Below, piece after piece: positions 36 through 22,200 of a stretch of DNA of 64,000 nucleotides (position 1 is its first letter; every line of letters begins with the position of its first letter). The position numbers and the translations under genes were made by a program. Where the stretch lies: the IMG/VR virus record IMGVR_UViG_3300031813_000003, positions 32,001 through 96,000 of that record, one strand, 5' to 3'. The DNA comes from a virus. Taxonomy: Duplodnaviria > Caudoviricetes. The notes beneath the pieces were generated by a model that had not been told where the DNA came from, made no database searches, and saw only the letters and a program-made list of their open reading frames with translations.

Positions 36-1451
36 ATGGCCGATTCAGTATTACTTGAAAAATGGACTGAACTAATTGACACAGATAAAGCACCTGCTGT
101 TCAATCCAGAGAAAACATGGCACAACTTCTTGAGAACCAAGAAGGGTATCTAAATGAAACAGCTACTGCACAAGCTGACGTTGCTCAGTATACACCAATT
201 TTGGTTCCAGCAGTTCGCCGTATCTTCCCTAACCTACTAGCAAATGAGATCGTAGGTGTACAACCTCTTAAACAACCTACTGGTTATGTATATGCACTAC
301 GTTACCTATATGGTGATGGCGCAGGTATCAACGCAGTTGACCGTGGAACCTTTAACCGTGACTTGACCGGTGCCCCTGCTGTATTCATGACTGTTGGTGT
401 TCTTTTTGCCGACATTACTCAAACTCCAACCGTATCTGGTTCAGTTGTGTTCACTTCTGGCGCACCTTCTGCTACTGGTACTGTTAACTACACTGAAGCA
501 GGACGTTGCTTAGTAACTTTTGCATCTGCTTCTGGCGCACAACTAGCAGTTACTCCAGGTGTTTCCGCAATCGGAGCAGGTATTAATACTACTGTTGTTG
601 CTGGTTTCGCAAACGAAGTTGGATACTCTCTAATCTTCAAAAACTGGACCGGTCCAATGACCACAGCAGTTGGTGAAACACTTGGTGCTTCAATCAAGAA
701 TATGCAGCTAAAGATTGAACGTGCTCAAGTACAAGTTCAGACCAGACGTTTGAAAGCTGAGTACACCCTTGAAATGGCGCAAGACTTAAAGAACATTCAT
801 GGACTAGATGCTGAGAAAGAACTTATCAACATCATGGAATATGAAATTGGTGCAGAACTTGACCGTGAATTAGTTGACCTAATTAACGCAAAAGCAACTG
901 TAACACCAGCATGGAACTACGGTTCTGTGAACGTTGCTAACGGAACAGCTGACGGTCGTTGGGAAGCTGAAAAAATCCGTACCCTCTACAATCGTCTTCT
1001 TCGTGAAGCAAATCAAGTAGCTCTAACTACTCGTAGAGGTTCCGCTAACTTCATTATTGCATCTTCTAACGTATGTGCTGCACTTGAAACTCTTTCTGGT
1101 TTCCTTTACGCAGCTGTGCCAGGAACTGTAAAACCAACCATTGGTGTTGCTAAAGTTGGCACTCTAGATGCTCGTTTCACTGTATACATGGATACATTTG
1201 CATACACTGACTACATCACACTTGGATACAAAGGCGCAGGATACGACAACGGTATCATCTACTGCCCATATATTCCACTACAAATGCAGAAAGTTATTGA
1301 CCCTGTTACTTTCCAGCCTAAGATTGGTTTCATGACTCGTGATGCAATTGCTGGAACTCTATATGGAACTCAGAACTACTACAGAACTTTTGCAGTTAAC
1401 TTCGGTTCCTCTTCCTTCGGTGGTGGTTATACCCTTGGAGTAACTTGGTAA
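36..1451 (+). CDS. gp23: Major capsid protein (T4 gp23 family)
   Basis: LLENQ, VRRIFPNLLANEIVGVQP..PTG, RRLKAEYTLEMAQDLKNIHGLDAE.EL, YCPYIPL, FQPKIGFMTR motifs; YLNE|T prohead-protease-type site; AAGGAG RBS. Confidence 0.98.
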   Translation: MADSVLLEKWTELIDTDKAPAVQSRENMAQLLENQEGYLNETATAQADVAQYTPILVPAVRRIFPNLLANEIVGVQPLKQPTGYVYALRYLYGDGAGINAVDRGTFNRDLTGAPAVFMTVGVLFADITQTPTVSGSVVFTSGAPSATGTVNYTEAGRCLVTFASASGAQLAVTPGVSAIGAGINTTVVAGFANEVGYSLIFKNWTGPMTTAVGETLGASIKNMQLKIERAQVQVQTRRLKAEYTLEMAQDLKNIHGLDAEKELINIMEYEIGAELDRELVDLINAKATVTPAWNYGSVNVANGTADGRWEAEKIRTLYNRLLREANQVALTTRRGSANFIIASSNVCAALETLSGFLYAAVPGTVKPTIGVAKVGTLDARFTVYMDTFAYTDYITLGYKGAGYDNGIIYCPYIPLQMQKVIDPVTFQPKIGFMTRDAIAGTLYGTQNYYRTFAVNFGSSSFGGGYTLGVTW

Positions 1452-10736: not shown

Positions 10737-11720
10737 TTGATTTCTTACTCAAAAACAGAACTACTTAACATTTTAGAAGCACACGAAAAGATAAACGGAA
10801 CCTTACCAACAAGAAGAGTACTAAGAAAATCTGGTCTGTCTGAAGGACCATTTATAAGAGTATTCGGAAGCTTTAGTGCAGCAAAAGAGTATTATAACCA
10901 AAGCAAACTAAGTGTTCAGCTTGATGATATCTGGATTAAAAAATCAGACATAGTTCAATTCTATCCTACCACTCTTGTCATACCTGATGCCCACGTATCT
11001 CCTGATCAAGATAACTCCAGATTTGTCATACTAAATAAACTAATTCTGGATAGAAAGCCTGATTATATCATCTTCATGGGTGACTTCGTTACCTTGGAAA
11101 GTCTGTCTAATTGGGACTTGAATAAAGCTGGTGTAATGGAAGGACGTAGATATCAAATGGATATCGAAGCAGGGCAACAAGCTCTGGAACTTACATTAAA
11201 AAATGTTAAACAAACTTATAGTCCTACTATCATCTACCTCCACGGTAATCATGAGACAAGGCTAGATCGTTATGTTGAAAGTAAACCAGAACTGAAAGAT
11301 CATCTTGACCTTAACAAAGATTTAAACCTGAAAGGTTATGGCGTTGATGTTATTGTGCAGTATCGTGAATACTACACCATTGAAGGAACACAGTTTACCC
11401 ACTCACCTATGAATGCAGCAAACCAAGCACTGTCTGGAAAGTTTGCAATTCATAGAGCATCAGAAATGACACAGAACAGTTTAGTATTTGCCCACTCACA
11501 TAGAAAAGAATATGTTAACTTCTATCGTCATGGGTCTGATGATATCGTTCAGGTTATGATGTGTGGGGCTTTCTTCGAACATACTGACTCCTACGCACAC
11601 GGCGGGCTTAATGCCTACTGGAGGGGCTGTATGCTCCTTAATCACTGGAAAAAAGGAAGGTTCGATGCTGAAGAATTCTCCCTTGAGAGGATGAAACAAA
11701 TATATGGATTATCATTATAA
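10737..11720 (+). CDS. Calcineurin-like metallophosphoesterase with N-terminal HTH-like repeat
   Basis: PDAH, MGDF, GNHE, THS, AHSH motifs; N-terminal 'FIRVFGSFSAAKE' repeat. Confidence 0.85.
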   Translation: MISYSKTELLNILEAHEKINGTLPTRRVLRKSGLSEGPFIRVFGSFSAAKEYYNQSKLSVQLDDIWIKKSDIVQFYPTTLVIPDAHVSPDQDNSRFVILNKLILDRKPDYIIFMGDFVTLESLSNWDLNKAGVMEGRRYQMDIEAGQQALELTLKNVKQTYSPTIIYLHGNHETRLDRYVESKPELKDHLDLNKDLNLKGYGVDVIVQYREYYTIEGTQFTHSPMNAANQALSGKFAIHRASEMTQNSLVFAHSHRKEYVNFYRHGSDDIVQVMMCGAFFEHTDSYAHGGLNAYWRGCMLLNHWKKGRFDAEEFSLERMKQIYGLSL

Positions 11721-11994
11721 TAAACTAACACCAGCTGAAGCTGAACGTTTAGCAATTCTATCAGAAGAGTGTGGGGAAGTTATTCAAATAATTGGTAAAA
11801 TACTTCGTCATGGATACAAAAGCTCACACCCTGAGGGTGGACCTACAAATAGGAAATTACTTGCTTTTGAAATTGGTGATGTAATAACGGCTGTATTAAT
11901 GATGACCGAAATAGAAGATATTAATAATAATATTATAGATGAACGTGTGGAGTATAAATTAGAAAAAATAAAAAAATATTTACACCATCAATAG
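11704..11994 (+). CDS. MazG-like NTP pyrophosphohydrolase
   Basis: LSEECGEVIQIIGKILRHG...LAFEIGDV. Confidence 0.85.
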   Translation: MDYHYNKLTPAEAERLAILSEECGEVIQIIGKILRHGYKSSHPEGGPTNRKLLAFEIGDVITAVLMMTEIEDINNNIIDERVEYKLEKIKKYLHHQ

Positions 11995-11998
11995 ATAC

Positions 11999-12033
11999 AA
12001 AGAGGGTAATCATTCAATTGGTTACCCTCTTTT
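11999..12033 (+). terminator. Intrinsic terminator
   Basis: AAAGAGGGTAATCA...TGGTTACCCTCTTTT. Confidence 0.8.
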
Positions 12034-12040
12034 CGTTTCA

Positions 12041-12048
12041 TATAAATA
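12041..12048 (+). promoter_or_regulatory. T4-type late promoter for the lysis and internal-protein operon
   Basis: Exact TATAAATA just after a terminator, 27 nt before the holin ATG; gp55 is encoded in the window. Confidence 0.75.
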
Positions 12049-12075
12049 ACTATAAAATAATAAAAGGAATTTATA

Positions 12076-12375
12076 ATGAATCTATTAACATTTTTCAAAA
12101 AGTATGGTGTATTGCTTGCTAGTTGTGGTCTTGGGTTGTTCTTCGTTCCTGATATTGAAACACTCCAAGTGACTCTATTTAGATTTGGTATTATTTCAGC
12201 AATTATGCTTCTTTGGTTGAATATCATTGGTCTAAATAAAGATACTGGTATATTTCCAGATGTTGATCTAAAAGAACTTTTTGACAAAGCTTGTGAATCT
12301 GGTATAGGGGCTGGAATTGCACTATTCGGATTATTAATTATGTTATCAACAATAATTTTCTGTATATCAAAGTAA
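12076..12375 (+). CDS. Putative holin
   Basis: 99 aa, three hydrophobic segments, directly upstream of the lytic transglycosylase. Confidence 0.6.
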   Translation: MNLLTFFKKYGVLLASCGLGLFFVPDIETLQVTLFRFGIISAIMLLWLNIIGLNKDTGIFPDVDLKELFDKACESGIGAGIALFGLLIMLSTIIFCISK

Positions 12376-12377
12376 GT

Positions 12378-13016
12378 ATGAAAATTTTAGTAATATTGAT
12401 CTTACTATTACTAATCCCATTTTCTGTTCCTGGGGATGATATGTTAGTACGATCCAAACCTTACATAGTTATTCTAAAATCAATTTTCAATCAATATTGG
12501 CCTAATGTAGATTGTAAGTATATAGCAGCTGGTCAGGTTGAACAGGAGTCTGATTGGAATCCCAAAGCACATCTTCATACTAAGAGAGAAGATGGTTATG
12601 GGTTGACACAGATAACAGTTACTCCTAGGTTCAATAACTTCAAAAATGCTGTTGATCTAAAACCACTGAAGTCATGGCACTGGAAGAATGATAAGTATAA
12701 TCCAACATATCAATTGACTTTTCTTGTCCTAGAAGACCGATCAAATTTCAATATGGTAGGGCATCTTCTGAAAGGTGATGCAGAGATATGGAAAGGTGTT
12801 CTTGTATCATATAACGCAGGATATGGAAGGCTGGAACGTAGGCATCAATACGCAGTTGCAAAAGGATTACCTCATGACTGCTGGACAGGTGGATTAGAAC
12901 TAGCACATGGAAGAACTGAAGATACAAAACTTTATGGGGAAACTCTCTGGAAGACAGTGAATGCTTACCCTGTATTAATATTCAAGAAAGCTGAAAAATA
13001 CAAAGGTGAATTATGA
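12378..13016 (+). CDS. Lytic transglycosylase (SLT) endolysin with N-terminal signal/SAR
   Basis: GQVEQES.WNP.A, GYGLTQIT, SYNAGYG. Confidence 0.85.
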   Translation: MKILVILILLLLIPFSVPGDDMLVRSKPYIVILKSIFNQYWPNVDCKYIAAGQVEQESDWNPKAHLHTKREDGYGLTQITVTPRFNNFKNAVDLKPLKSWHWKNDKYNPTYQLTFLVLEDRSNFNMVGHLLKGDAEIWKGVLVSYNAGYGRLERRHQYAVAKGLPHDCWTGGLELAHGRTEDTKLYGETLWKTVNAYPVLIFKKAEKYKGEL

Positions 13017-13369
13017 GATACATGTCATTCAATCAATATCTAACAGAAATGTCAACACATATTGGAGATGTTGAATTTAGATTCTCTAATCACTTTTCTG
13101 ATAGGGTGAAAGAACGCTCAGTCATTACCCCTGATGATTTGAATACTTTATTAGCTAATATTAGAAAGAAGTTAACTGATCTACCGGCTGTTGGTGAATT
13201 CCTTTTCTATTCTAAGAGACTTGCCCAAGGGGTTATTGCAGCATGGGACTCATTTAGAAATCGAATAAGTCTCATTACTTTCCTGCCAAAAAATAAACAT
13301 TTCGCAAAGCCTGGGACTGAAACTGTGGTTCTTGAATCTATTACATATCAAATAATCTATATAGACTAA
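13013..13369 (+). CDS. Putative head-internal protein, BECR/RelE-like nuclease fold
   Basis: Leader MSFNQYLTE|; FSNHFSDRVKER...ISLITF. Confidence 0.45.
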   Translation: MRYMSFNQYLTEMSTHIGDVEFRFSNHFSDRVKERSVITPDDLNTLLANIRKKLTDLPAVGEFLFYSKRLAQGVIAAWDSFRNRISLITFLPKNKHFAKPGTETVVLESITYQIIYID

Positions 13370-13377
13370 GGACTCCA

Positions 13378-13923
13378 ATGTTATCCTTTAAACAGTTTAT
13401 AACTGAAGATGCTGATGTAGATACTCAACTCAAAAAACTAGGGCTTAGAAGGGGTGGTATGGGGTTTCCAGTGGGTAAAGTGATTGGTGGTTGTGTGTAC
13501 CTTCACAAACAATATGAGAATGAACTTCCACAAGATTTCTTAGCCAATGCCAAATCAAAACTCCCTAAAGGATTTCACTACGACACATTGAAGTTCGATC
13601 CTAAATCAAAGTCAATCACATTCTTCAGGGTAGATGATTTCGATACTAATCATGAACCAATCATTGATGAATATGTTACTGTTAAGCCTAATTCTGACGG
13701 TGTTAAAGTTGTTACTGATGGAAACACAGTTTATCACCATAAATGGCAATGGGTAGGCCCTGACTATAAAGGGTTTGATGTTGAGAAGAACAAAGCTAGA
13801 AGTGCAAAATGGTATGGGTTGACGGATGCTGATATCGGCCAGGAGAAATATAAATGTAAGATTGGTAAGAATAGTTTCTGGCAACAGCATGTTGTTGATA
13901 AATTTCTAAAGGATGATGAATGA
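13378..13923 (+). CDS. Putative head-internal protein resembling the accessory domain of the phosphorothioation-associated methyltransferase
   Basis: Leader MLSFKQFITE|; GKVIGGCVYLHK, ITFF..DDFDT..EP, VYHHKWQWV..DY.GFDV. Confidence 0.5.
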   Translation: MLSFKQFITEDADVDTQLKKLGLRRGGMGFPVGKVIGGCVYLHKQYENELPQDFLANAKSKLPKGFHYDTLKFDPKSKSITFFRVDDFDTNHEPIIDEYVTVKPNSDGVKVVTDGNTVYHHKWQWVGPDYKGFDVEKNKARSAKWYGLTDADIGQEKYKCKIGKNSFWQQHVVDKFLKDDE

Positions 13924-14600
13924 AACTAAAATCATTTACACAATTCATAACTGAGGCTATAACATCACCTACTGACAACCCAAAATTCACAAAATGGTTT
14001 GGTAGTTCTAAAGTTGTAGATGATCAGGGCAATCCATTGGTTGTATATCATGGGACTGCTAAAGAGTTTACTGCTTTTATGTCAGATGATAATCAGAAAA
14101 CTTTTGGTTCTAGATATAGTGGAATGAAAGGATCATTCTTTACAAGTCGCCCAGGTGAAGCAAATCACTATGCAGAACAATCAAGAATCTGGAAAGGTGG
14201 AAATGAACAAGTTCTCCCTGTGTTTCTTAAAATAGAAAATCCTTATATCAGAAAAGGTGGTAAATTCCCAACTCAATGGTTTGATAGTAATTGGGAAGAT
14301 ATTCAAAGAAAGTGTGAATCAAGAGGATATGATGGAATTATTATAACAGGCGGAACTCCTGAGATACCTAGGACTATTTACATCACATTTGAACCTATCC
14401 AAGTGAAATCTGCTATTGGTAATAATGGAAACTTTGATCCATCTAATCCACATATTACCGAAGATAAAAAGATAAATACTATTAATGAATCTTCTAACGA
14501 TTGTAAATATTTTCGTAAAGATACAGAAACCTGTTCTATCAAGAAAAACAAGACATGTAAATATATAGATGACCAAGGAGATTGTAAAGACTATGAGTAA
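13920..14600 (+). CDS. Putative head-internal ADP-ribosyltransferase (ART-PolyVal-like)
   Basis: Leader MKLKSFTQFITE|; FTKWFGSSKVVD..GNPLVVYHGT, FFT, VLPVFLKIENP, GYDGII, QVKSAIGNNGNFD. Confidence 0.75.
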   Translation: MKLKSFTQFITEAITSPTDNPKFTKWFGSSKVVDDQGNPLVVYHGTAKEFTAFMSDDNQKTFGSRYSGMKGSFFTSRPGEANHYAEQSRIWKGGNEQVLPVFLKIENPYIRKGGKFPTQWFDSNWEDIQRKCESRGYDGIIITGGTPEIPRTIYITFEPIQVKSAIGNNGNFDPSNPHITEDKKINTINESSNDCKYFRKDTETCSIKKNKTCKYIDDQGDCKDYE

Positions 14601-15135
14601 GTTTGAAAAATATCTATTAAGTGAAATGGCAACTCCAGATGAACAAGCAATTGCCCAAGCAACTTCAAGAAATACAGGTGCAGTTGGAGCCAAAGCTATT
14701 GTTCCTAGGATGGTAAGACAATATGCAAATAAGAATAAAGATGTAATCCTAGACTTTGGTGCAGGAAAAGCAGCTGCACATACATTGGCTCTTAGAGAAG
14801 AAGGATATAATGTTACAGCATATGACTTTTCACAATCAGAGTTTCATGATCCTACTGCGTTGAATAAGAAATACACTCTAGTATTTGCTTCTAATGTACT
14901 AAACGTCCAAGGGTCAGAAGATATGCTTATGAATGATACTTTAAGACCTATATATAAGGTTCTTCGTCCAGGTGGTAGATTCATTGGTAATCTTCCTTCT
15001 AGCCCTCTTAAAGGTATGTATAAGGGTCTTACTTATAAAGAGTGTGTTGCTCTATTACAGAGTAAACTTGAAGAAGTATTCTCAAGTGTAAAGAGATTAG
15101 AAGGATCAACTCCTGTATGGATGTGTATCAAATGA
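14593..15135 (+). CDS. Putative head-internal SAM-dependent methyltransferase
   Basis: Leader MSKFEKYLLSE|; ILDFGAGK, VTAYDF, VFASNVLNV, VLRPGG. Confidence 0.8.
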   Translation: MSKFEKYLLSEMATPDEQAIAQATSRNTGAVGAKAIVPRMVRQYANKNKDVILDFGAGKAAAHTLALREEGYNVTAYDFSQSEFHDPTALNKKYTLVFASNVLNVQGSEDMLMNDTLRPIYKVLRPGGRFIGNLPSSPLKGMYKGLTYKECVALLQSKLEEVFSSVKRLEGSTPVWMCIK

Positions 15136-16039: not shown

Positions 16040-16591
16040 ATGATTACAACTGGACTATCACTATCAGAGTTTAGAAAGAATGTTTCAGACTTGGCTAGAC
16101 CAAATAGATTTGAGGTTCAAATTACTCCTCCATCTGCGTTTGACTCATATACTGATGGTCAATTCAAGATGTTATCTTGGCTTGCAGAATCAGCACAAAT
16201 TCCTTCTAGGACACAAGGTGAAATTCCAATTAAATTTCATGGAATGGAATTAAAACTCCCAGGAGACTATGCTAAAGAAAATCTTACTATTGGATTTATA
16301 AATTCATATGGTTGGGAAGGAAGATCATTCTTCGATTCATGGATGGAATATATTCAATATATCAATGACGATAACTCAAGAAATTCTGCATATGATATGA
16401 TAGTAGATTCACAAATTGTTATTAATCAACTAGGAAGAACCATGAATGATATATTAGCTTCATATATATACTATAATGTGTTTCCTACTAGTTTATCAGC
16501 AATAGATTTGAACATGTCTGAAAACGATTCTATTGAAAAATTTACAGTAACTTTTTCATATTCTCATGTAGTACCATATGAGGCTACCTAA
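16040..16591 (+). CDS. gp19: Tail tube protein (gp19-like)
   Basis: DLARPNRFEV, AQIPS...GEIPIKFHG.ELKLPGD, IEKFTVTFSY. Confidence 0.8.
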   Translation: MITTGLSLSEFRKNVSDLARPNRFEVQITPPSAFDSYTDGQFKMLSWLAESAQIPSRTQGEIPIKFHGMELKLPGDYAKENLTIGFINSYGWEGRSFFDSWMEYIQYINDDNSRNSAYDMIVDSQIVINQLGRTMNDILASYIYYNVFPTSLSAIDLNMSENDSIEKFTVTFSYSHVVPYEAT

Positions 16592-17271
16592 TGGCTAGAC
16601 GATCATTGATAGTTCCACATAAATCAACATTTAATCCATTGACAAATGTTTTGAATGACTCTGAGGATAATGGGGTATTTCCATATAATCTTCAGGATGA
16701 ACCAAATCCAATAGATTCATCTACAATGTTTCATGTCAATTATTTGAAACAACAGTTCAGTGATCTTGCTAGACCAAATCAATTTAAGATTATGATTGTT
16801 CCCCCTGAACCACTCAAATCAGATTGGGATATGACTAATGGAAACTTGATGGTATTGGCTAAATCAACTAAAATCCCTAGTATGACTGTTAAAGATTATA
16901 TGTATCAAAGAGCAGGGCAGAAATTATATATACCTACAGGTGAAGTTGAACACGGAGATGCTTCAATAACATTCTATAATGATTCCGATTTTAGTCTTAG
17001 AACTATGTTCAATCGTTGGATGAGATTGGGATTACATAATTGGGAATATAATATAGGATCAATCCCTAAATTGGCATTGGATGGGATGGTTATGATTTAC
17101 CATTATGACTATAGTTTAAAACCAGTATATGCGGTTAAGCTTATGAATGCTTGGCCCAAGCATGTATCTGAAATTGAGTTAAGCCAGGATACAGAAAATA
17201 CAGCTGAAGAATTTACTGTTGAGTTTAACTATAGTTATCAGGAAATTTATAAAAATATAGGGGATCAGTGA
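16591..17271 (+). CDS. Second tube-fold protein (gp19/gp54-like)
   Basis: DLARPNQFKI, NAWPKHVSEIELSQDTENTAEEFTVEFNY. Confidence 0.75.
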   Translation: MARRSLIVPHKSTFNPLTNVLNDSEDNGVFPYNLQDEPNPIDSSTMFHVNYLKQQFSDLARPNQFKIMIVPPEPLKSDWDMTNGNLMVLAKSTKIPSMTVKDYMYQRAGQKLYIPTGEVEHGDASITFYNDSDFSLRTMFNRWMRLGLHNWEYNIGSIPKLALDGMVMIYHYDYSLKPVYAVKLMNAWPKHVSEIELSQDTENTAEEFTVEFNYSYQEIYKNIGDQ

Positions 17272-17888
17272 TGAGTGATACAACTTCATATCTACATTGG
17301 TTAAATGCAGATTGGATAAAAGAGAATTCATCCATTGGTGATAATCAGGGTCTTCCATTTACAGATAGATTTGTGTGTTTACTAAATGCACCTAAAGGAA
17401 ATCTAAGAAAAAATGGTTGGCTTGAGCTTCAGGTAATGTCGGTTGAATTGCCAAGTTTCAACATTGAACCATCAGAATTAGAATTAAATGGTGCCAGGAG
17501 ATTCTATTTTACTAAGAGGGGTGATACAGAACTTAGTATTACCTTCCTAGAAACGCCAGATTTGCTTCTCAGGAGGTTTTTTTACTCATGGATGCAGTTG
17601 GCTATTGATGTGAGTGATAATGGCGTTACAAGAGGGTATATGAGCGATTATATGCCTATTCCTTCTGAGTTTGTAATCTTCCCTGTTGACTTCAACGGAA
17701 CCGCTAGATATGCAGACCGATTTGTTAACGTATTTCCATATGATATATCAAGCATCAGTTATAATTTCGCCCAGGCTGGAGAATTATTAAAGACTACAGT
17801 TAAGTTTAAATATATGTATCACTACTTAACATCTATAATGGATTCTACACCATATCATGATTCAGAAACCCCAGGAATGGGAAACTAA
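17268..17888 (+). CDS. Third tube-fold protein (gp54-like tube initiator)
   Basis: SVELPS, LSITFLE, RRFFYSWM, NVFPYDISSISY...TVKFKY. Confidence 0.65.
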   Translation: MMSDTTSYLHWLNADWIKENSSIGDNQGLPFTDRFVCLLNAPKGNLRKNGWLELQVMSVELPSFNIEPSELELNGARRFYFTKRGDTELSITFLETPDLLLRRFFYSWMQLAIDVSDNGVTRGYMSDYMPIPSEFVIFPVDFNGTARYADRFVNVFPYDISSISYNFAQAGELLKTTVKFKYMYHYLTSIMDSTPYHDSETPGMGN

Positions 17889-18798: not shown

Positions 18799-21486
18799 AT
18801 GGCTATTAAAACACCGGCAGAAAAATATAAGCAATTAGTCAAGATATTCATAAGAAGAATGTCTAAAGACGTTGATAACATTAAACACAGTGTTGCTGGT
18901 GTATATGCTAGGTCTGCTATATCTATTCTCATGGCATCTGATTTAGAAACAATCAAAGACACAAAGAAAAATATGGACCTGATAGTTTCTGAGTACAAAA
19001 GATATAAATCTTCTGAAGTAACATCAACTAAAGATATTGTTAATAACTCAAAATATCTAAATCAAGAATATAAAAGAATAAATCTTGAGCTATCTGCTAC
19101 TAAAGCTAAAAGAAGAAAAATAAGATTGAAAGCTGAACTAGCTGATATAAAACAAAAGAGAATTGATAATGTAAATTCAATAAGGGATATTAAAAATAAA
19201 TTTAAAATATCAGATGATATTATCAATAAAGTATCAGGATTTTTAAAATCACAAAATGGTGTTAAGATAAATGATAATTATATTAGACTAACTGATATTC
19301 AAAATATTGACTCTGTATCAAGAAGAAAAGATTTACTAAAAAAAGGAGCTTTGGGTGGATTAGCAGCATTAACAAAAAGCTCTATTCCTTTGTTAATACC
19401 AAGAGGAATTAAAGGTATTAAAGAAGGATGGAAAAATTTTAATAACAATAGTAAATCAGGGAAAGCATCTTTACTCGGTGCTGGTTTATTAGGAGGACTA
19501 GGAATTTTAGCAGGAAGCCCTGCTGCTATGATGGGGGCTGCATATCTAAAAGGTAAATCAAATGAGCATCTTCAAAAGAAAAATGATTTTTCTGAACAGA
19601 TAAAAAGAATAAATTCTAACATTTTAAGGGAACAGTTAAATCACAAACGTGATCCTTCAAGGACTGCTAGTAAAACAAATTCATTTGAAGAAGCTTTAAT
19701 TCAATCTCTTGAGAAATCACATCCAGGGATCAGAAAAGAATTACGTCCAGCACTTCGTGGTCATAAACATGGAGGAACATTTCAAACAATTGGGCCTACT
19801 AGAATAGGAAATCATGATATAGCTGGAGAAGCAGGACCAGAAACTATAAAGATTATACCAAAAGGAAAAGACCCTGTAGTTACTAGCATTGAGAAGACAA
19901 ATAGTATTCTTAATGATATGAGACATTCACAAGAAGAATCAGCTATTAAGGTAGGTCTTGCTAATAAAGATAAAAACGAAAAGTTAGATGTAAAAGCTAC
20001 ATCAAATGTTTTTGGTTCTGCTATCACTAAAAATACAAAAGGCGAGACTGGTCTTTTAACTACACTTCTTGAAGCTGAATTTTTAACACCAATATTGGCA
20101 CCGTTAATTACTAGTGTAGCAAATGTAGCAAAACCATTATTATTAAAAAGTGTTAGTATGGCAGGGCGAGGATTACTTAGAGGAGCAGGTATTGGTGCTG
20201 CTGGATCAGCCGCTTATTTTGGAGTTACTGATGCTATTAAAGCGGTTAAAACAGGTAAATCAACATCAAATGATTATGCTAGAAAATTAGGATTTGTTAA
20301 ATCTAAAGAAGATATTGATAGTGGTACTGATTCAAGATCAAAATGGAATCCTTTATCCTGGGCTGGAAGAGGTATAGATACTTTGGCGGAAGGTGCTGCT
20401 AAATTATCTGTTATTATCACTGAAGATAAATCAAAAACAACTGCTGATTTATTAACAAAGGCTGATGAAAATAAAACTCTAATGGAGAAGATGAATTCCA
20501 TTTGGAGTGATCCAAGCAAATCACCACTTCAAAAATTAGGTGGAATGTTTTCATCAACAATGAATTCTATTGGTAGTGGAATTAAAAATATATTTCCACA
20601 TAAACCAGCAGAATTTGATGTATCAAAACTAAAGAATGGTGTAGGTTCTGTTGCGGAAAAATATGAATCAGGTGGAAGAGGAGCAGGAACTATATCATCA
20701 GGGTCAGGAGATTTTGGAGGTAAGTCATATGGAACTTTTCAATTATCATCAAAATCAGGAACTCTAAATTCATTTTTAAAACAATCACCATATGCTAAAG
20801 AATTTAATGGACTTCAGCCAGGATCAACTGAATTTGATTCTAAATGGAAAGATTTAGCTAAGAATGATCCTGGATTTGGCAAAGCTCAACACGATTATAT
20901 AGCACAAACTCATGCTGCGCCACAGATGGATAAGTTAAAAAAATTAGGTTTAGATACTAATAGTAAAGCATTACAAGAAATGGCTTTCTCTACTGGAACT
21001 CAATATGGTCCTGATTCTAACATTATTGAAGAAGCTATCAAAGCATCAGGGAAAGACCCATCCAAACTATCAACTAAAGAAGTTATTGATATAGTTCAGG
21101 ATTACAAAGCATCTACTGTTGGTAGTAAGTTTAAATCATCTAGCCCTAGTGTTCAAGCAGGAGTTGCACGTAGACATGGTGTTGATGAAAAATCTGACTT
21201 AATGCAGATAGCAGATTATGAAGCTAAAGTTAAACCAAAAAATGTACAAGAAGGATCAATTAAAAATATTAAAGGTAATGCTACTAATGGATCAGAAGGT
21301 AGTAATCTTACAAACAAAGAGACTGCAACTGATGCTTTTGCTAATGCTAATGCAGCTAAAGGAACTCAGGCAGCTATAAATAATACCGTTCTAGGAGGGT
21401 CAACACCCACTCCTCCATCACCAACACCTAATATTTTTACAGGAGATCAAATAAGTTATGCTACTAGATTAGCAAAATCTTATTAA
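18799..21486 (+). CDS. Tape measure/hub protein (gp29-like) with C-terminal lysozyme-like domain
   Basis: 895 aa, helical Gly/Ala/Lys-rich, AGEAGPE motif, AEKYESGGRG.GTIS.G.GD.GGKSYGTFQL; position between gp26/51 and gp48. Confidence 0.75.
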   Translation: MAIKTPAEKYKQLVKIFIRRMSKDVDNIKHSVAGVYARSAISILMASDLETIKDTKKNMDLIVSEYKRYKSSEVTSTKDIVNNSKYLNQEYKRINLELSATKAKRRKIRLKAELADIKQKRIDNVNSIRDIKNKFKISDDIINKVSGFLKSQNGVKINDNYIRLTDIQNIDSVSRRKDLLKKGALGGLAALTKSSIPLLIPRGIKGIKEGWKNFNNNSKSGKASLLGAGLLGGLGILAGSPAAMMGAAYLKGKSNEHLQKKNDFSEQIKRINSNILREQLNHKRDPSRTASKTNSFEEALIQSLEKSHPGIRKELRPALRGHKHGGTFQTIGPTRIGNHDIAGEAGPETIKIIPKGKDPVVTSIEKTNSILNDMRHSQEESAIKVGLANKDKNEKLDVKATSNVFGSAITKNTKGETGLLTTLLEAEFLTPILAPLITSVANVAKPLLLKSVSMAGRGLLRGAGIGAAGSAAYFGVTDAIKAVKTGKSTSNDYARKLGFVKSKEDIDSGTDSRSKWNPLSWAGRGIDTLAEGAAKLSVIITEDKSKTTADLLTKADENKTLMEKMNSIWSDPSKSPLQKLGGMFSSTMNSIGSGIKNIFPHKPAEFDVSKLKNGVGSVAEKYESGGRGAGTISSGSGDFGGKSYGTFQLSSKSGTLNSFLKQSPYAKEFNGLQPGSTEFDSKWKDLAKNDPGFGKAQHDYIAQTHAAPQMDKLKKLGLDTNSKALQEMAFSTGTQYGPDSNIIEEAIKASGKDPSKLSTKEVIDIVQDYKASTVGSKFKSSSPSVQAGVARRHGVDEKSDLMQIADYEAKVKPKNVQEGSIKNIKGNATNGSEGSNLTNKETATDAFANANAAKGTQAAINNTVLGGSTPTPPSPTPNIFTGDQISYATRLAKSY

Positions 21487-21495
21487 GATATAATT

Positions 21496-22200
21496 ATGGG
21501 TATACTTCAATTTCCATCAAAATTTGCTAATAATATGCCTTGGGTACATTTGCAAGCATTTACATATGCATTCCCAACTCCTGATACTACTATTTTAAGT
21601 AAGATAAATCCTAAAACAGCAACAGGGGATATTATTGCTCTATATATGCCTGGGGAATTTACTGAATCTGCTGAAGCTTCCTGGGGATTAGAAGAAACAA
21701 TGAGATCAAGTGGGAATTGGGGAGCATGGGCAACAGCAAATGCAGCTGCTGCTCTTGATGCTACCGGTGCTGGTGCTAAAGTACTTGCTACAGCAAAAGC
21801 AACTGCAGGTAGATTGCCATTTCCAACAGATGTTGCAATATTTCAGTATATAAGTCCTTTAAGTTTTTCTTTGAACTTTAATATGATTCCTTTTGATAAA
21901 GAAGAAGGTGATGCTATTGTATCTATATGTCAAACATTTAAGAAATTACAAGCACCTAAAGTAGATGGTTCACTTGAGAATGTTTTATTAAAATTTCCAG
22001 CAATATGGGATATACAATTTGTTGGTATTAATGGTGTAGCATATAATATAGATAGCAAATATGAAAATATGGCATTAACTCATTGCTCAGTATCTTATAT
22101 ATCAGGGACTGAAGGTGCATCAGTGTATGCAGATAAAAATCCTACCCAGGTTAAGTTAAGTTTAACTTTTCAAGGTATACAAAAATTCTTTTTACAGTAA
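21496..22200 (+). CDS. gp48: Baseplate tail-tube cap (gp48-like)
   Basis: LQFP, IALYMP, FSLNFNMIP...EEG.AIV.IC..FK, ALTHCSVSY, PTQVKLSLTF. Confidence 0.7.
   Translation: MGILQFPSKFANNMPWVHLQAFTYAFPTPDTTILSKINPKTATGDIIALYMPGEFTESAEASWGLEETMRSSGNWGAWATANAAAALDATGAGAKVLATAKATAGRLPFPTDVAIFQYISPLSFSLNFNMIPFDKEEGDAIVSICQTFKKLQAPKVDGSLENVLLKFPAIWDIQFVGINGVAYNIDSKYENMALTHCSVSYISGTEGASVYADKNPTQVKLSLTFQGIQKFFLQ

Follow-up and report, generated by a model that had tools for sequence, protein, structure and literature searches.

A 64,000-nucleotide stretch of a caudoviricete genome (the window; bases 32001-96000 of the 215,974-bp IMG/VR virus record IMGVR_UViG_3300031813_000003) contains two small plus-strand genes, at window positions 13378-13923 and 14593-15135, that probably constitute a split, virion-packaged form of a two-domain module composed of a class I S-adenosylmethionine (SAM)-dependent methyltransferase and a second domain of ~140 residues, which has no name and which we call domX. 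The first gene encodes a 181-amino-acid (aa) protein consisting of a leader and this alpha/beta domain, and the second encodes a 180-aa methyltransferase with a leader of its own. The best-supported reading is a methyltransferase-domX pair like those in polyvalent effectors that virions deliver, encoded here by separate genes. An earlier sequence-only reading of the same DNA had proposed a split, packaged homologue of the DNA phosphorothioation-associated methyltransferase TIGR04096, the two halves acting together on incoming phage DNA or against a Dnd- or Ssp-type restriction system; the observation behind this proposal was partly confirmed and its interpretation partly supported.

Fused and adjacent counterparts of the two genes

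The two genes correspond to the halves of one module because fused counterparts exist. The window methyltransferase matched residues 1415-1582 of one protein (P0056; E 7e-34) in which domX follows at residues 1609-1753, and residues 468-608 of another (P0035; E 1.5e-28) in which domX comes before it, at 324-482. Methyltransferases of the window type (E<=1e-23) were joined directly to domX in at least 18 proteins, in both orders and including giants. About 67 of the 246 domX proteins examined contained a methyltransferase, and Methyltransf_23 was the commonest domX partner (20/66 mid-length representatives). Other domX proteins carried a methyltransferase of the TIGR04096 type, and a few matched both local methyltransferase profiles. 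The fused counterparts of the window pair are phage and polyvalent proteins of a sister family, not TIGR04096.

The pairing also recurred between separate genes. We surveyed 80 IMG/VR viral loci carrying the window type of methyltransferase and sought domX within 10 kb; it was present in ten, of which four were fusions, three were adjacent genes and three were close relatives. The adjacent two-gene pairs came from unrelated phages (L034, L041, L079), and the order of genes seen in the window was kept in three close relatives.

Homology of domX to the TIGR04096 accessory domain

The sole NCBIfam match of the domX protein was to TIGR04096 (E 1.3e-3), with residues 31-142 aligned on positions 322-440 of the 478 in the profile. 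At 17.6 bits this match lies below the curated cut-off of 150 bits, and the methyltransferase at 14593-15135 gave no match. TIGR04096 was nevertheless matched by 15 of 17 domX homologues using hmmscan (best E 4.3e-7), and hhalign comparison of a profile of 46 diverse domX sequences with three bona fide TIGR04096 reference members (586-595 bits) gave a probability of 94.9% (E 4.5e-8) over template columns 327-451. The AlphaFold model of the domX protein was confident, with a predicted local distance difference test score (pLDDT) of 89.2 and a predicted template modelling score (pTM) of 0.83. When this model was compared with the ESM Atlas, four clusters were found at template modelling (TM) scores of 0.66-0.68 over 135-147 residues, three of them named 'DNA phosphorothioation-associated putative methyltransferase', together with a viral methyltransferase-bearing cluster at TM 0.74. 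We conclude that domX and the C-terminal accessory domain of TIGR04096 are homologues.

domX occurs in a single copy in the virus record and belongs to a large family, comprising 1144 clusters (50% identity) at E<=1e-3 in an exhaustive HMMER search. Its members span single-domain forms of 120 aa to giants of ~5600 aa, and 50 of 137 representatives were short and mostly single-domain. The family is mostly basic (median isoelectric point 9.15), and residues H43, E93 and H120 are invariant. Pfam scans of domX proteins, LPD families included, returned nothing relevant, and a sequence search of the PDB with the domX profile returned nothing at E<=10. Foldseek comparison of the domX model with the PDB revealed no solved relative (best E 0.28), and no known RNA-binding fold was detected in the fold searches. 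A BFVD search gave one real match, an unnamed viral protein of 1232 aa. Two functional readings of individual motifs, a Walker-type NTP-binding site at G-K-x-I-G-G and a 2H-phosphoesterase formed by the two His motifs, were unsupported by motif spacing and by the fold searches.

Elsewhere, domX was found fused to a CCA-adding enzyme plus HD domain and to NUDIX, GNAT, ART-PolyVal, Tpt1 and Zeta-type kinase domains, and further partners were NFACT-R, RadC, MuF and portal domains. The CCA-adding plus HD proteins (P0062-P0105) come from uncultured phage contigs and are 640-990 aa long, and many begin with a leader of the form MIKLKxLLxE followed by domX, which suggests that tRNA-end repair enzymes may be packaged into T4-like heads.

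Cultured phages with a domX homologue numbered 51, all of them Vibrio phages. One of the related genes is KVP40.0371 of Vibrio phage KVP40 (L001 3929-4891). Its product carries an N-terminal domX (32-35% identity, E ~1e-13), has an N-terminus that likewise ends in an I-x-E motif, and is encoded by a T4-like phage in a run of genes that includes a 'prohead protease inhibitor' gene; a second inhibitor-type gene (inh) lies nearby on the other strand. PHROG 16075 matched the window domX protein at E 3e-18. Unlike the window protein, the KVP40 protein is 320 aa long, has a different C-terminal domain of ~160 aa to which no family was assigned, and lacks a methyltransferase partner.

TIGR04096 proteins and phosphorothioation loci

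When the entire phage genome was searched in six frames with TIGR04096, only profile positions 322-437 were matched, and the middle region of the profile (~190-320) was absent; a local profile of that middle region matched TIGR04096-type proteins alone. The TIGR04096 model itself includes an internal, degenerate copy of domX, and many members have a second, much better-conserved domX, far more similar to the phage domX (~200 bits), at one end or as a neighbouring gene, the latter arrangement occurring in planctomycetes. Split and fused states of domX alternate beside bacterial TIGR04096 genes. One protein combining TIGR04096 with domX (P0023) is encoded next to SspC (1027 bits), SspD (E 8.5e-113), SspA/DndA (E 1e-147) and an HNH gene. 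SspC/D/A-like genes were present within 10 kb in 30 of 80 bacterial TIGR04096 loci (L091-L170), usually with a divergent SspD-SspC pair ~1 kb upstream, and the family name is therefore deserved. A search of the phage genome for SspD found none. Literature searches for TIGR04096 and for its full name found no functional study, and PADLOC has no model for domX, for the methyltransferase or for TIGR04096.

The window pair and TIGR04096 are alike in combining a class I methyltransferase, N-terminal in TIGR04096, with a C-terminal accessory domain homologous to the 13378-13923 protein. They differ in that TIGR04096 proteins are single chains of ~480 residues whose helical middle region is missing from the window phage, in that their methyltransferase appears to be of a different subfamily (with its own motifs FDYGCGHG ... 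GYVINVIE), and in that they are encoded on chromosomes next to SspC/D/A-like genes and carry no leader.

The methyltransferase is a generic class I enzyme

The protein encoded at 14593-15135 matched Methyltransf_23 (E 9.3e-7; 29.2 bits against a cut-off of 27) and, judged by its sequence, is an ordinary class I SAM methyltransferase. D54, G56, G58, the S100-N101-V102 motif, N133 and P135 were invariant in the family alignment. Its motifs (…ILDFGAGK…, …ASNVLNVQ… and …N.P.SP.K) are of the small-molecule, protein or RNA kind, not the DPPY/NPPY kind of DNA amino-methyltransferases. None of 36 members of this methyltransferase family matched TIGR04096 in an NCBIfam scan, and the matches obtained were generic (CpaM, DVU_1556, Erm, TehB). 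Comparison with the TIGR04096 members by hhalign reached 54% (E 1.3e-4) over just 72 columns around motifs I-II. The fold neighbours of a modelled fused homologue were many solved generic class I methyltransferases (E ~1e-6), including small-molecule enzymes and the rRNA methyltransferases RsmC and RlmG; since these neighbours are solely generic, no class of substrate could be inferred for the enzyme. A tblastn search of cultured phage records with the methyltransferase found no homologue.

Taken together, the sequence-only reading was right to see a TIGR04096 accessory domain in the 13378-13923 protein, to place that family beside phosphorothioation loci and to see the two genes as the halves of a fused protein. 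It was also right that 14593-15135 encodes a methyltransferase, but not one specifically of the TIGR04096 type. Its view of the pair as a split homologue of TIGR04096 consequently holds in that fused counterparts exist, and is unsupported for the methyltransferase type and the middle region.

Leaders and predicted packaging

In phage T4, ten residues of internal protein III (IPIII) suffice for capsid targeting; positions 4 and 7 of this leader are responsible for targeting, positions 8 and 10 drive processing, and the gp21 protease cuts after L/I-X-E (PMC9026906), with the leader rules also documented in PMC3012670. The domX protein begins with MLSFKQFITE (10 codons, 13378-13407, plus strand), a predicted capsid-targeting sequence with aromatic residues at positions 4 and 7, I at position 8 and E at position 10, the last three residues forming a gp21-type site (I-T-E). 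The methyltransferase begins with MSKFEKYLLSE (11 codons, 14593-14625, plus strand), in which L-S-E is the predicted cleavage motif. Both belong to a set of four consecutive genes, starting at 13013, 13378, 13920 and 14593 and encoding separate proteins of 118-226 aa, all of which carry a leader of ~10 residues that ends in I/L-x-E and meets the rules for T4 internal proteins. A strict form of the leader pattern was found in 10 open reading frames (ORFs) genome-wide compared to 0-0.1 in shuffled genomes. The same record encodes a prohead serine protease of the T4 gp21 type (Peptidase_S77, PF03420, E 2.5e-24). The claim that both halves occur as separate, leader-tagged genes on either side of an ADP-ribosyltransferase (ART) gene was confirmed for the ORFs, the leaders and the ART family (PF18760).

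Residues 1-14 of the domX protein were disordered in the AlphaFold model (pLDDT <50). The leader was kept in close domX homologues and missing from distant or bacterial ones. Closer metagenomic homologues of the methyltransferase likewise had the same leader or T4-type leaders such as MKTYKQFITE, and more distant ones began right at the catalytic core with no leader. Four more leader-bearing genes lie outside the window, at record coordinates 19590-19934, 19936-20748 and 21489-22157 on the plus strand and 105187-105741 on the minus strand; three of the four are upstream of the prohead protease gene.

The ART protein offers a possible second site of processing. Its residues 182-226 (window 14463-14600) form a Cys-rich tail that recurs at the C-terminal end of a domX protein from another contig (P0006). 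I-T-E and I-N-E motifs inside the ART protein precede this tail, which may therefore be removed by the prohead protease. This would be analogous to T4 Alt, which is cut at both ends.

The tagged proteins resemble T4 IPI, IPII, IPIII and Alt in having a short leader with aromatics at positions 4 and 7, I/L at 8 and E at 10, in being encoded by clustered genes for diverse small proteins, an ADP-ribosyltransferase among them, and in sharing a genome with a cognate S77 protease. They are unlike the T4 proteins in that the window cargo is unrelated to IPI-III and its ART is of the PolyVal type, not Alt; moreover, the window phage is very distant from T4 and its packaging is predicted from its genes alone.

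Genome and gene neighbourhood

A gp23-type major capsid protein is encoded at window positions 180-1367 (PF07068, E 7e-99), and the record also encodes a gp24-like paralogue of it. The capsid protein is ~37% identical to that of the best cultured T4-like relative, and the phage is therefore a deep, distant branch of the T4 superfamily. A megablast search of the locus against cultured phages returned zero matches.

The four tagged genes belong to a tightly packed plus-strand run (12076-15135) marked by gene overlaps and short gaps. The first, an ORF at 13013-13369, encodes a 118-aa protein with the leader M..MSFNQYLTE; a Pfam scan assigned it no family, and its only match was a weak one to PHROG (phrog_17629, E 1e-3). 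The ART-PolyVal ADP-ribosyltransferase gene at 13920-14600 (226 aa, plus strand, leader MKLKSFTQFITE, Cys-rich C-terminal tail) separates the domX gene on its 5' side from the methyltransferase gene on its 3' side and matched PF18760 over all profile positions, 1-140 of 140 (E 2.2e-26). The methyltransferase most likely starts at 14593 and not at the alternative ATG at 14569, because AAGGAG lies 12 nt upstream of 14593 and its homologues begin with MSKFEKY. Upstream of the run, a T4 late-promoter-like box, TATAAATA, is present at 12041-12048 on the plus strand. There were 9 matches to this box in the window compared to 10.4 expected; the box by itself is therefore not significant and counts as weak evidence.

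On the 5' side of the tagged genes, window positions 10737-13016 encode a metallophosphoesterase with an HNH-repeat-like N-terminus, a MazG-type pyrophosphohydrolase, a small membrane protein and an SLT-type transglycosylase/lysozyme with a hydrophobic N-terminus; these genes may belong to the same late, virion-associated block as the tagged genes. Just 3' of the run, at 16040-17888, are three consecutive paralogous genes of the tail-tube family (phrog_45, E 5.5e-46 to 6.7e-19), a triple also found in the relative L008. A close relative (L008 2569-5555 / L010 3268-6251) keeps the order domX, ART, methyltransferase, with an insertion ahead of the methyltransferase gene that places a DUF723 homing-endonuclease gene on the opposite strand.

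Discussion

We propose that the two genes probably encode one module that would be delivered with the virion. Each leader would draw its own protein into the prohead core, the prohead protease would trim the protein after I/L-x-E, and the trimmed proteins would leave the head along with the DNA, in the manner of T4 IPI-III and Alt. In the infected cell, the methyltransferase would use domX as a module for substrate recognition or as a partner, a guiding role for domX that we infer because the fusion recurs. The pair would then methylate a target in early infection while the neighbouring ADP-ribosyltransferase would modify another. Nucleic acid is the leading guess for the target of the methyltransferase-domX pair, because the bacterial relatives adjoin Ssp-type genes and domX proteins are mostly basic.

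The nearest conceptual parallel is provided by the polyvalent proteins of phages and conjugative elements, which include the DarB-type methylase-helicase dyad (Iyer et al. 2017, PMC5512222); polyvalent, virion-delivered effectors are also covered in PMC9503650. The same injected modules are found in both settings, ART-PolyVal, methyltransferase and domX residing, among the polyvalent proteins, within giants of 1000-5600 residues, and in both the methyltransferase is tied to a fixed partner domain. In contrast to polyvalent proteins, the window modules are separate genes, each with its own leader, instead of one giant polypeptide. Unlike DarB, the window methyltransferase is not of the N6-adenine type and its partner is domX, not LPD36 or a helicase.

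Several observations weigh against a single packaged module. No domX was found within 10 kb in 70 of the 80 methyltransferase loci, and domX is joined to many other types of enzyme; the link is therefore frequent, not obligate. In the model of a fused homologue both domains were confident, but a disordered linker (residues 164-171) joins them and they take no fixed orientation towards each other (pTM 0.52). In the L008/L010 relative, domX lacks its N-terminal beta-sheet half and the methyltransferase is intact. domX could also be an enzyme in its own right and not an adaptor, because its invariant His and Glu residues are kept. Packaging and cleavage of the tagged proteins were deduced from sequence only. 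A complex prediction for domX residues 15-181 with methyltransferase residues 12-180, run with alignments, scored 0.00 and counts neither for nor against binding. An alternative is a cluster of unrelated capsid-tagged effectors in which domX and the methyltransferase act on different targets and their fusion elsewhere reflects free shuffling of modules. The short, mostly single-domain forms of domX, its many other partners, the 70 loci, the ART gene standing between the two genes and the fused model without a fixed interface are all consistent with this. We nevertheless regard such independence as possible but doubtful: methyltransferases are by far the commonest partner of domX, the two are directly adjacent in both orders, even within giant proteins, adjacent two-gene pairs recur in unrelated phages, and bacterial TIGR04096 proteins repeat the pairing, with an internal and often an extra copy of domX. 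It is very improbable that the leaders are no targeting signals at all, and that ordinary cytoplasmic enzymes share their N-termini through a common translation-initiation region or recent duplication. The reliance on sequence for packaging and the lack of statistical enrichment of the TATAAATA box 5' of the run would fit that view; against it, the leader matches the T4 rule position by position, occurs on unrelated proteins at several loci, is gained or missing among homologues according to phage type and is disordered in the model, and the genome encodes the cognate protease.

The remaining alternatives concern the target of the proposed methyltransferase-domX module. The module might act on RNA, with domX binding tRNA or other RNA ends and the methyltransferase modifying RNA, as part of an injected set of activities that would repair tRNAs, shield them from host anticodon nucleases or reprogram translation. 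This would account for the many fusions of domX to RNA-end enzymes, of which CCA-adding plus HD proteins make up ~40 of 92 long matches, many bearing the leader MIKLKxLLxE, and others join domX to the RNA 2'-phosphotransferase Tpt1/KptA, the RNA-binding NFACT-R, NUDIX or Zeta/AAA_33-type kinases; it would also fit the basic character of the domX family, the fold neighbours RsmC and RlmG and the weak NCBIfam matches to Erm. We consider an RNA target unlikely, however, as the bacterial relatives are found in DNA-modification loci, no known RNA-binding fold was detected in domX, and the word-based search may have over-represented the CCA-adding fusions, which could form one clade. A somewhat more improbable alternative is counter-defence against Dnd/Ssp, in which domX would serve to recognise DNA, either with phosphorothioate marks or without them, for a methyltransferase that marks or disables the relevant DNA or sensor. 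The homology of domX to the TIGR04096 accessory domain, the location of P0023 beside SspC, SspD, SspA/DndA and an HNH gene, and the Ssp-like genes in 30 of 80 loci argue for it. So may the finding that every one of the cultured phages with domX infects Vibrio, which is also the genus of the first Ssp system to be characterised. Against it, TIGR04096 has neither a function in the literature searched nor a PADLOC model, and the phage methyltransferase does not appear to be of the TIGR04096 type, has no DPPY/NPPY-type motif and has small-molecule and rRNA methyltransferases as its fold neighbours. Moreover, most domX contexts are unrelated to phosphorothioation, and action on phage DNA or on restriction rests solely on the neighbourhood of distant bacterial relatives. 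Just as improbable is a more general version of this idea, in which domX would be a new fold that reads the state of the DNA backbone or its phosphorothioates, the pair being used by bacteria as TIGR04096 and injected in split form by phages against phosphorothioate-sensing immunity. In that case the pair could methylate the sensed mark or could mark the incoming DNA.

In summary, domX is a large, widespread and confidently folded domain, yet it has neither a Pfam model nor a solved relative. Paired with a methyltransferase, its commonest partner, it occurs next to Ssp-type phosphorothioation genes in bacteria and as part of injected effectors in phages. The window offers both halves as small, separate proteins, which is the easiest form for binding and methylation tests. 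The locus further suggests that a phage of the T4 superfamily routes polyvalent modules via internal-protein leaders, which would link two known delivery strategies. If the target were indeed phosphorothioate-based immunity, the pair would represent a new class of anti-defence and would provide a first function for the long-unannotated TIGR04096.

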